The notes under the pieces are model-generated. The model had not been told where the DNA came from, ran no database searches, and saw only the letters and a program-made list of their open reading frames with translations. The position numbers and the translations under genes were made by a program. A stretch of 5,719 bases of DNA. Origin: a virus (taxonomy: Duplodnaviria > Heunggongvirae > Uroviricota > Caudoviricetes). Positions 3,476 to 3,504 of the stretch are shown in pieces (the first letter of the stretch is position 1; every line of letters starts with the position of its first letter). The stretch lies in the IMG/VR virus record IMGVR_UViG_3300029498_000035. One strand, 5' to 3'.

Positions 3476-3504
3476 GCTGGTGGGTGCCCCTAACACCCAC
3501 CAGC
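3476..3504. repeat. perfect 11-bp inverted repeat carrying Chi octamers on both strands
   Basis: gctggtgggtg (3476-3486), spacer cccctaa, cacccaccagc (3494-3504). GCTGGTGG lies on plus at 3476-3483 and its complement ccaccagc at 3497-3504. No U-tract follows on either strand, so it is not a terminator. It lies between the small HTH ORF and the methyltransferase. Confidence 0.55.

Follow-up and report, generated by a model that had tools for sequence, protein, structure and literature searches.

Is a perfect DNA hairpin that carries the Chi octamer (GCTGGTGG) on both strands kept for its Chi sites, or for the hairpin itself? The window analysed here, a 5,719-nucleotide (nt) stretch of Caudoviricetes DNA (IMG/VR virus record IMGVR_UViG_3300029498_000035), raises this question. 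It is the late-regulatory region of a lambdoid, Shiga toxin (Stx)-phage-like prophage whose genes lie on the minus strand, and the palindrome in question (3475–3505) stands on the transcribed strand, within a 150-nt gap between a terminator and the start codon of a DNA methyltransferase gene. We assign a probability of about 0.7 to the reading, drawn from sequence comparison, that the palindrome forms the topmost helix of a structured, conserved ~145-nt 5′ leader acting in cis on the prophage methyltransferase mRNA.

An inverted-repeat search revealed the palindrome as the sole perfect inverted repeat of at least 12 nt in the window, with two arms of 12 nt each (3475–3486 and 3494–3505) that are 100% complementary and have 7 nt between them. 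By our estimate, ~0.003 perfect 12-bp short-loop hairpins are expected per 5.7 kb of random sequence (5700 positions × 8 loop lengths × 4^−12); the palindrome is therefore a real feature and no chance match. The first-pass annotation had described it as gctggtgggtg-N7-cacccaccagc at 3476–3504, which agrees with the sequence (spacer cccctaa), and the repeat extends one base more on each side. One exact Chi octamer lies at 3476–3483 on the plus, or antisense, strand and the other at 3497–3504 on the minus, or late-sense, strand, within the G/U-rich 5′ arm; the gap between the two is 13 nt, not the 14 bp given previously. Read on the sense strand, the hairpin comprises the 5′ arm GGCUGGUGGGUG (3505–3494), the loop UUAGGGG (3493–3487) and the 3′ arm CACCCACCAGCC (3486–3475), with a predicted ΔG of −26.5 kcal mol−1. 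No U-run that would make it an intrinsic terminator follows the stem on either strand, the sense strand continuing with AUCUGCUCAUGCG and the plus strand with GCCCAUUUACCAC, and the palindrome was not listed by a terminator scan that did list the neighbouring terminator at 3546–3529.

We then compared the locus with its relatives, gathered by using the methyltransferase protein as anchor (80 close relatives from IMG/VR, and 80 species-level genome loci with 51–97% protein identity). The whole conserved leader RNA occupies 3380–3525 on the minus strand (covariance model R1, 123 bits, E = 2e−28; alignments A3 and A4), beginning just past the upstream terminator and reaching as far as the start codon of the methyltransferase. 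Its predicted fold has two domains. The first, P1, is a long interrupted hairpin of which the palindrome, as apical stem-loop P1c/d, supplies the top 12–13 bp; beneath it stands the lower stem P1b (3465–3511), in which AUGGGC (3511–3506) pairs with GCUCAU (3470–3465) in 98% of cells, with a 4-nt bulge on the 3′ side (AUCU, 3474–3471). P1b and P1c/d together form a predicted helix of 17–19 bp, broken by this conserved bulge and an internal loop. In the second domain, the long-range helix P3 (3384–3457), whose 5′ strand GUUCACAAGC (3457–3448) pairs with GCUUAAUGAUC (3394–3384) and which shows covariation, encloses the hairpin P2 (GGCCCACUGCUUU...AAAGCAGAAUGAGCC, 3407–3439). The 3′ strand of P3 stops a few nt short of the methyltransferase ATG. 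Per-sequence partition functions across the relatives gave mean pairing probabilities of 0.95 for P1c, 0.71 for P1b, 0.6–0.7 for P2 and 0.69 for P3a.

Two other pairings were considered. RNAalifold proposed, for the first alignment, a long-range pairing of UGGGC with GCCCA, which we dropped in favour of the local P1b and P2 because P2 covaries independently (its outer pair is GC in 40 leaders, AU in 9 and GU in 8), while the lone double change, in locus L095, fits the local pairings equally well. A basal helix P1a (UGUGA with UCACA) is 95% paired, with one-sided changes only and a predicted probability of 0.02; it is possibly an alternative conformer that competes with P3 for UCACA. Beside P3, we also observed an invariant GATC four nt before the methyltransferase ATG (..CUGAUCYAUG; window 3380–3400, minus strand; A4 columns 139–157), which pairs with GAUC/GGUC in P3.

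Covariation was evaluated on 59 distinct leaders for the structure made up of P1b, P1c/d, P2 and P3. Standard pairs filled 90.1% of cells in these four helices, versus 29–45% when the partners were slid by 1–3 columns. Changes on both sides were found at 12 pairs (62 cells), distributed over the palindrome helix (5 of 11 pairs), P3 (4 of 10) and P2 (3 of 13); in 500 shuffles, the observed cell count, covariation score and percentage paired were never attained, and the figure of 12 pairs was attained twice. G·U cells exceeded A·C cells by 58 to 7 in P1b and by 50 to 2 in P3, an excess that indicates the sense (minus) strand, and in 30 of the 37 distinct apical variants the sense-strand hairpin was more stable than its antisense counterpart. 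The higher covariation counts from alignment A6, derived with the covariance model, were set aside, as its rows include low-scoring and antisense sequences.

The apical hairpin itself showed what is maintained and what is not. Some 127 nt ahead of the ATG, the sense strand carries the block AAAUGGGCGGCUGGUGGGUGUUG, which hardly varies among ~45 species-level Enterobacterales loci (Enterobacteriaceae, Erwiniaceae and Morganellaceae), and all 37 distinct apical variants fold, into hairpins of 10–14 bp. Among the close relatives, 51 carry the 3′ arm CACCCACCAGCC and hence a perfect stem, 13 carry CACCUGCCAGCC (two G·U pairs) and 12 carry CACUCACCAGCC (one G·U pair). The majority 3′ arm among the genomes, CACCC-(GG/GA/AA/UA)-CCAGCC, produces an outer stem of 6 bp and an inner stem of 5 bp, separated by a small internal loop. 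The minus-strand Chi is present in 26 of the 37 variants, and the plus-strand Chi in 7, only where the 3′ arm is exactly complementary; a natural variant with the 3′ arm CACCTGCCAGCC carries one Chi. Compensatory changes in both arms abolish Chi altogether, as in GACTGTAAAGGTG/CACCCTTACAGTC, GACAGTGAGGATG/CATCCCCGCTGTC and GCGGTGAAAGTG/CACTGACACCGC. Several lineages have replaced both arms while retaining the flanking leader sequence: Providencia and Proteus (L135 and similar loci; 5′ arm GACUGUAAAGGUG, 3′ arm CACCCUUACAGUC), a second Proteus type (L142; GACAGUGAGGAUG and CAUCCCCGCUGUC), Serratia (L146; GCGGUGAAAGUG and CACUGACACCGC) and Rosenbergiella (L130; GACUGGAAAAGUG and UACUUAACCAGUC). 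Providencia holds both Chi-type and non-Chi-type hairpins.

The two arms have not evolved alike: the 5′ arm shows almost no variation, and the 3′ arm is varied, often one base longer, with changes biased towards those compatible with wobble pairing. The 5′ arm is nearly frozen because a G/U-rich helix strand has no single-step substitution that is neutral to pairing, and the 3′ arm drifts because a C/A-rich strand tolerates C-to-U and A-to-G changes through wobble pairs. The plus-strand Chi is present in the window because the 3′ arm in its lineage exactly complements the Chi-bearing 5′ arm. Selection on the octamer itself was not apparent in these comparisons: the majority base is held by 48–59 of 59 rows at the Chi positions and by 56–59 of 59 in the flanks, Chi is lost in the compensatory arms, and its density in the closest complete prophage is raised only ~1.6-fold. 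These sequence comparisons indicate that the hairpin is what is selected and that the Chi pair is a by-product of its stem.

We investigated how widely the leader occurs and what it accompanies. The gap is conserved in phages SfV, mEp460 and phiP27, in Stx2 phages, and in phages of Klebsiella, Citrobacter, Morganella and Providencia; the leader upstream of the methyltransferase is conserved from Escherichia coli as far as Morganella, Proteus and Providencia, with weaker conservation in Vibrio, and across this span, Vibrio included, compensatory and G·U-tolerant substitutions preserve its structure. A scan of IMG/VR with a 14-mer of the leader yielded 46 true leaders, all of them (46/46) followed by the methyltransferase, besides 31 chance matches and three leader copies that were cut off or missed by the filter. 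In complete E. coli genomes, the leader was found in 1853 of 5426, at 1–7 copies each, which is as expected if copy number follows the number of such prophages. It does not behave as a dispersed palindrome of the repetitive extragenic palindromic (REP) or bacterial interspersed mosaic element (BIME) type, since all 46 IMG/VR matches and all genome loci lie upstream of the same methyltransferase operon. Elsewhere, three IMG/VR records (L174, at 3779–3850, L198 and L250) contain the first 15 nt of the leader (TGTGAAAATGGGCGG) followed by another hairpin, TCGG...CCGACCGCC, with no methyltransferase downstream; the similarity may have arisen by chance, or these may be distantly related to the motif.

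Known RNA families did not account for the element. Rfam 15 gave no match on the sense strand of 3380–3525 at E up to 1, and none in two relatives (L135 and L152); the lone overlap was on the opposite strand, where P26 matched below its threshold (24 bits versus a gathering score of 36). No paper describing the leader turned up in literature searches, a search with the stem sequence gave nothing relevant, and a comparative paper on pR′ does not mention the element. It is apparently an undescribed folded RNA leader and would add a new family to the known class of structured cis-acting mRNA leaders.

The first-pass annotation had proposed that a convergent Chi pair built into a stable hairpin could protect the phage DNA from RecBCD whichever end is entered. 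The window contains five exact Chi octamers, whereas dinucleotide shuffling yields 0.18 on average (none of 200 shuffled sequences had as many as five); ~1.2 would be expected at the mean density of E. coli K-12, one per 4.6 kb (PMC12315714). Four of them (3476 plus, 3497 minus, 3814 minus and 5570 plus) had been listed correctly, and a fifth, at 5518–5525 on the plus strand, had been overlooked. Outside the palindrome, the octamer at 3814–3821 is in the late-sense orientation upstream of a small open reading frame (ORF), and those at 5518–5525 and 5570–5577, both on the plus strand, are antisense to the DUF968 gene. Lambdoid phages devoid of a Rec module are Chi-rich and enriched in Chi hotspots (Bobay et al. 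2013, PMC3784561; PMC12315714), and their sites lie mostly on the top strand, active for RecBCD entry from the right end and clustered there (Zheng et al. 2025, PMC12315714). Phage LLS, whose Chi sites number 23, 20 of them active (PMC12315714), has the same leader upstream of its methylase gene 51, with a top-strand Chi only, at 39318; seven top-strand sites, this one included, lie within the final 6.9 kb of LLS, and it is the same site as 3497–3504 of the window, whose minus-strand Chi is therefore physically a Chi in active orientation. With the position of cos taken from a relative's gene order only, 3497–3504 and 3814–3821 have the late-sense, active orientation, and 3476–3483, 5518 and 5570 the other. 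The closest complete prophage, in E. coli NCTC86, contains 14 Chi in 40 kb (10 late-sense, 4 opposite, none in 11 kb of structural genes), a density ~1.6 times the E. coli mean. Chi is thus above the host background across a complete prophage, an enrichment that is suggestive but weak; its density and orientation fit the published pattern weakly and leave the palindrome unexplained. A second palindromic Chi pair, CCACCAGCTGGTGG, is found within the methyltransferase coding sequence of the NCTC86 prophage (L170, 30836–30849), a 98%-identical relative, and was not found in the window even at 2 mismatches.

Taken as an explanation of the element, the Chi hypothesis holds that the site or pair is kept since it switches RecBCD from degradation to recombination, so that phage DNA is protected or recombined from the cos/right end or from either side. 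RecBCD recognises Chi in duplex DNA whatever its origin, and both octamers are exact, and their geometry had been described correctly: RecBCD arriving from either side would encounter a properly oriented Chi once it had traversed the palindrome. The minus-strand Chi persists in 26/37 variants in the orientation active from the right end (PMC12315714), the same site is among the seven top-strand sites at the end of LLS, a Chi-rich phage helped by RecBCD, and the excess in the window and the 10:4 bias in NCTC86 point the same way. Against these stand the lower conservation of the Chi columns than of the flanking leader columns, the non-Chi compensatory arms in several lineages with both types inside Providencia, the restriction of the convergent pair to 7/37 variants, and the active orientation of only two of the five window sites; moreover, Chi needs no hairpin to act, and neither the conservation of the other ~135 nt nor the covariation with the start-codon region is explained. 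We regard Chi selection as the reason for the element as improbable, while a secondary Chi role of the sense-strand octamer may exist. The hairpin is thus kept in homologous phages and the convergent pair is not, and two-way protection is not supported as the reason for the palindrome. The fallback offered by the first-pass annotation, a palindrome that happens to contain the motif, comes closer to the evidence, except that it envisaged a DNA site for a protein and the comparisons point to an RNA stem. Just such a site is the least probable of the alternatives: a duplex operator through which the 65-amino-acid (aa) winged-helix protein encoded directly upstream, or another dimeric regulator, would control transcription of the methyltransferase. 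That protein is co-conserved, the inverted repeat is of typical operator size, and the terminator between the two genes makes a separate methyltransferase promoter conceivable. The half-sites, however, are unequally conserved, the 5′ arm being near-invariant and the 3′ arm varying mainly in ways that keep G·U pairs on one strand; the stem changes compensatorily between lineages, and the helix belongs to a larger covarying fold with a ~60-nt long-range pairing before the ATG. No sigma-70-like promoter was detected nearby (scan of 3200–4100), and the protein is a generic winged helix without a dimerisation domain whose structural matches include the RNA-binding SelB. The conserved TGTGAAAAT could be taken for an extended −10 element only as speculation, and this would put the RNA start inside P1b.

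A third alternative keeps the RNA and changes its purpose: P1 would be a processing or stability signal, either an RNase III site that frees the methyltransferase message from the Q-antiterminated late transcript or a protective stem at a 5′ or 3′ end. The predicted 17–19 bp helix, with its conserved 4-nt bulge and internal loop, resembles phage RNase III processing hairpins such as those of T7 (R1.1) and the lambda N leader, and it stands immediately behind a terminator, where two genes of a polycistronic late operon meet. Yet the loop and flanks (AAAUGGGCG, GUGUUG) are strongly conserved, which RNase III sites do not normally need, and the covarying P3 beside the start codon is left without an explanation; as the sole function of P1, processing seems unlikely. 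More ambitious than the cis-acting leader, and rather unlikely, is the idea that the leader represents a new class of factor-responsive riboregulator controlling translation of this widespread prophage methyltransferase, in which the apical hairpin docks a trans-acting factor (the candidate being the 65-aa protein), P3 acts as the switch by concealing the site of ribosome loading, and the G/U-rich arm incidentally supplies a Chi in active orientation that Rec-less, Chi-dependent phages such as LLS exploit. Several points weigh against the cis-acting leader as well. The window's own copy is predicted to fold otherwise in the 3′ domain (0.03 for P3a, 0.00 for P2), and translational occlusion by P3 may thus be inapplicable to it. 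The shuffle control makes no correction for phylogeny, P1b and P1a show one-sided changes only and hence no compensatory proof, and the apical helix by itself has a small asymmetry (18 G·U versus 14 A·C cells in the MAFFT alignment). Covariation of paired half-sites could in principle arise at a DNA operator with a co-evolving protein; we infer an RNA-level function of the leader from covariation alone, and the terminator directly 5′ of it makes the start of the methyltransferase transcript ambiguous.

If the cis-acting leader is correct, the methyltransferase transcript would be read from the minus strand with the leader acting in cis on the RNA. Most likely, P3 would bury the ribosome-loading region and so limit or gate translation of the methyltransferase, whose start codon has no recognisable Shine-Dalgarno sequence. 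P1 would serve as a recognition or stabilising element, either a site for a factor such as the 65-aa winged-helix protein or a processing hairpin of the RNase III type.

Among the closest known systems is com-mom of phage Mu, in which a zinc-ribbon protein, Com, acts together with a translation-inhibiting stem in the mom mRNA. As in Mu, a small ORF and a stretch of structured mRNA at the translation start come before a DNA-modification gene of the late region. More distant homologues, in Vibrio and Shewanella, follow a true Com-type ORF (PF10122, 24.6 and 34 bits at a cut-off of 22.9) and have a hairpin pairing with the Shine-Dalgarno sequence; Com-mom-like logic is plausible for this enzyme family because its Vibrio relatives carry that ORF. 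Vibrio loci, too, contain matches to the covariance model R1 (25–40 bits), in which the leader ends at the AUG of the Com-type ORF that precedes the methyltransferase homologue. In these loci, P3 has bases swapped relative to the enteric P3, and this AUG is covered by its 3′ strand; the Com-type ORF stands between leader and gene in the four Vibrio loci L149, L150, L152 and L160; the leader family thus lies upstream of a Com-type ORF in Vibrio, whereas the Shewanella locus gave no match to the model. For Mu-type sequestration of the start region, the observations point both ways: P3 covaries and ends a few nt before the ATG, and its mean probability is 0.69 in the relatives but 0.03 in the window. 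Unlike in Mu, the protein encoded upstream in the window is a winged helix rather than a zinc ribbon, with a terminator separating its gene from the leader; the leader is a two-domain element of ~145 nt, and the enzyme is an N6/N4 methyltransferase and not Mom, all compared from sequence alone.

Several further arrangements were observed among the distant homologues. In L149, L150, L152, L160 and L167 (at ~1325–1500), the methyltransferase directly follows a Com-type zinc-ribbon ORF (PF10122); L167 yielded no leader. A short hairpin after this ORF in L149, L150 and L160 pairs with the Shine-Dalgarno sequence of the methyltransferase (GUGCC...GGAGGCAC), which resembles the layout of Mu mom. Some Vibrio and Psychromonas homologues (L154, L156, L157, L158 and L169, ~1330–1500) carry a different conserved leader, consisting of UUUGAUGCCUUGAGUACCUGAGACCC, a GC-rich hairpin, UUCAAGGCUCUUU and a Shine-Dalgarno sequence; Rfam gave no match to it in the four scanned (L154, L156, L158 and L169). 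M.EcoGIX proved to be a plasmid enzyme and has no relation to this methyltransferase gene.

The element shares traits with other known systems. Like the Chi hotspots of Rec-less lambdoid phages, it has an exact octamer, whose sense copy is in active orientation near the right end and is counted in LLS; unlike them, its octamer lies inside a helix conserved for pairing and able to lose Chi, the opposite Chi is a lineage-specific by-product, and conservation extends far beyond eight bases. With RNase III hairpins, it shares a long stem-loop, interrupted by a bulge and an internal loop, where two genes of a polycistronic phage transcript meet; the leader, known by prediction, differs in its strong primary-sequence conservation and its covariation link to a start-codon domain. 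Lambdoid and Stx prophages also encode structured RNAs between Q and the lysis genes (STnc100, AgvB, AsxR and the StxS-type PR′ transcripts), and STnc100 copies lie ~1.5 kb downstream of the leader in the window. The leader has no Rfam match and is the leader of a gene rather than a free-standing, terminated small RNA.

The leader is common; lambdoid phages, Stx-converting ones among them, carry it immediately ahead of the region with the methyltransferase, tRNA and stx/lysis genes. Should the leader govern expression of the methyltransferase, the timing of phage DNA methylation, and hence restriction escape during lytic growth, would be affected, and a covariation-supported RNA motif would join the catalogue of phage cis-regulators. 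Some Chi counted in Chi-rich phages ride in elements conserved for other reasons, so that hitch-hiking sites of this sort should be allowed for in Chi counts and in estimates of orientation bias; to those who scan genomes, the locus illustrates that a striking coincidence of motifs can arise from the composition of an RNA helix.

On the minus strand, the genes and elements of the window follow the order DUF968, RusA, Q antiterminator, a terminator-like site, the 65-aa ORF, the terminator, the palindrome, the methyltransferase, two tRNAs, STnc100 copies and iraM. The Q antiterminator (273 aa) lies at 4778–3957, and ~80 nt past its stop codon the terminator scan found a terminator-like hairpin, CCCGCCGCCUGGCGGG followed by U6 (3874–3859), which is probably tR′. 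The 65-aa gene lies at 3533–3730 and is followed directly, on the 5′ side of the leader, by the intrinsic terminator GCCUUCCGCAGUGAAGGC then UUUUUUAUUU (3519–3546; stem 3546–3529 plus T-run), which ends the small-ORF transcript; relatives have a GC-rich stem and T-run in the same place with another sequence. The methyltransferase gene (349 aa, Pfam N6_N4_Mtase) extends over 2333–3382, with its ATG at 3382–3380.

The 65-aa protein belongs to PHROG 331 (function unknown) and weakly matches TrmB; public records call it a TrmB-like or DprA-like winged helix, and its gene is co-conserved with the leader-methyltransferase module. An AlphaFold prediction with a 20-sequence alignment gave a predicted local distance difference test score (pLDDT) of 92 and an H-H-H-beta-beta winged-helix topology, while the single-sequence prediction (pLDDT 53) was unusable. 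Foldseek returned generic winged helices only, at E of 1e−3 or worse (MarR/OhrR, IclR, winged-helix domains of O-methyltransferases and the mRNA-binding domain of SelB); the protein may bind DNA or RNA, which these matches cannot separate. In phage LLS, gene 50 upstream of the leader (L291, 2696–3274) is annotated as 192 aa rather than as the 65-aa winged helix, so the link between that protein and the leader may not be universal. In the Vibrio locus L152, the ORF preceding the leader (113 aa, followed by a terminator) has weak similarity to the winged-helix protein; we did not accept it as a homologue (pairwise E = 9e−4, hhalign probability 6.5%). Some gene callers extend the small ORF to a 94-aa reading (products of 96–106 aa), and the Chi at 3814–3821 overlaps its GTG start.

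Downstream of the tRNAs, the window contains two strong tandem matches to STnc100 (RF02076) on the minus strand, at 1200–1388 and 1664–1857 (132 and 139 bits), and a weak third copy at 1453–1628 (minus strand, 30 bits); STnc100 has been linked to the PasD small RNAs of Stx-type prophages (2026 preprint). The two phage tRNAs, also on the minus strand, are a tRNA-Arg (TCG) at 2122–2198 and, at 2208–2283, a tRNA-Met (CAT) according to ARAGORN; RefSeq calls this same gene tRNA-Ile in a relative, like ileZ of Stx phages.

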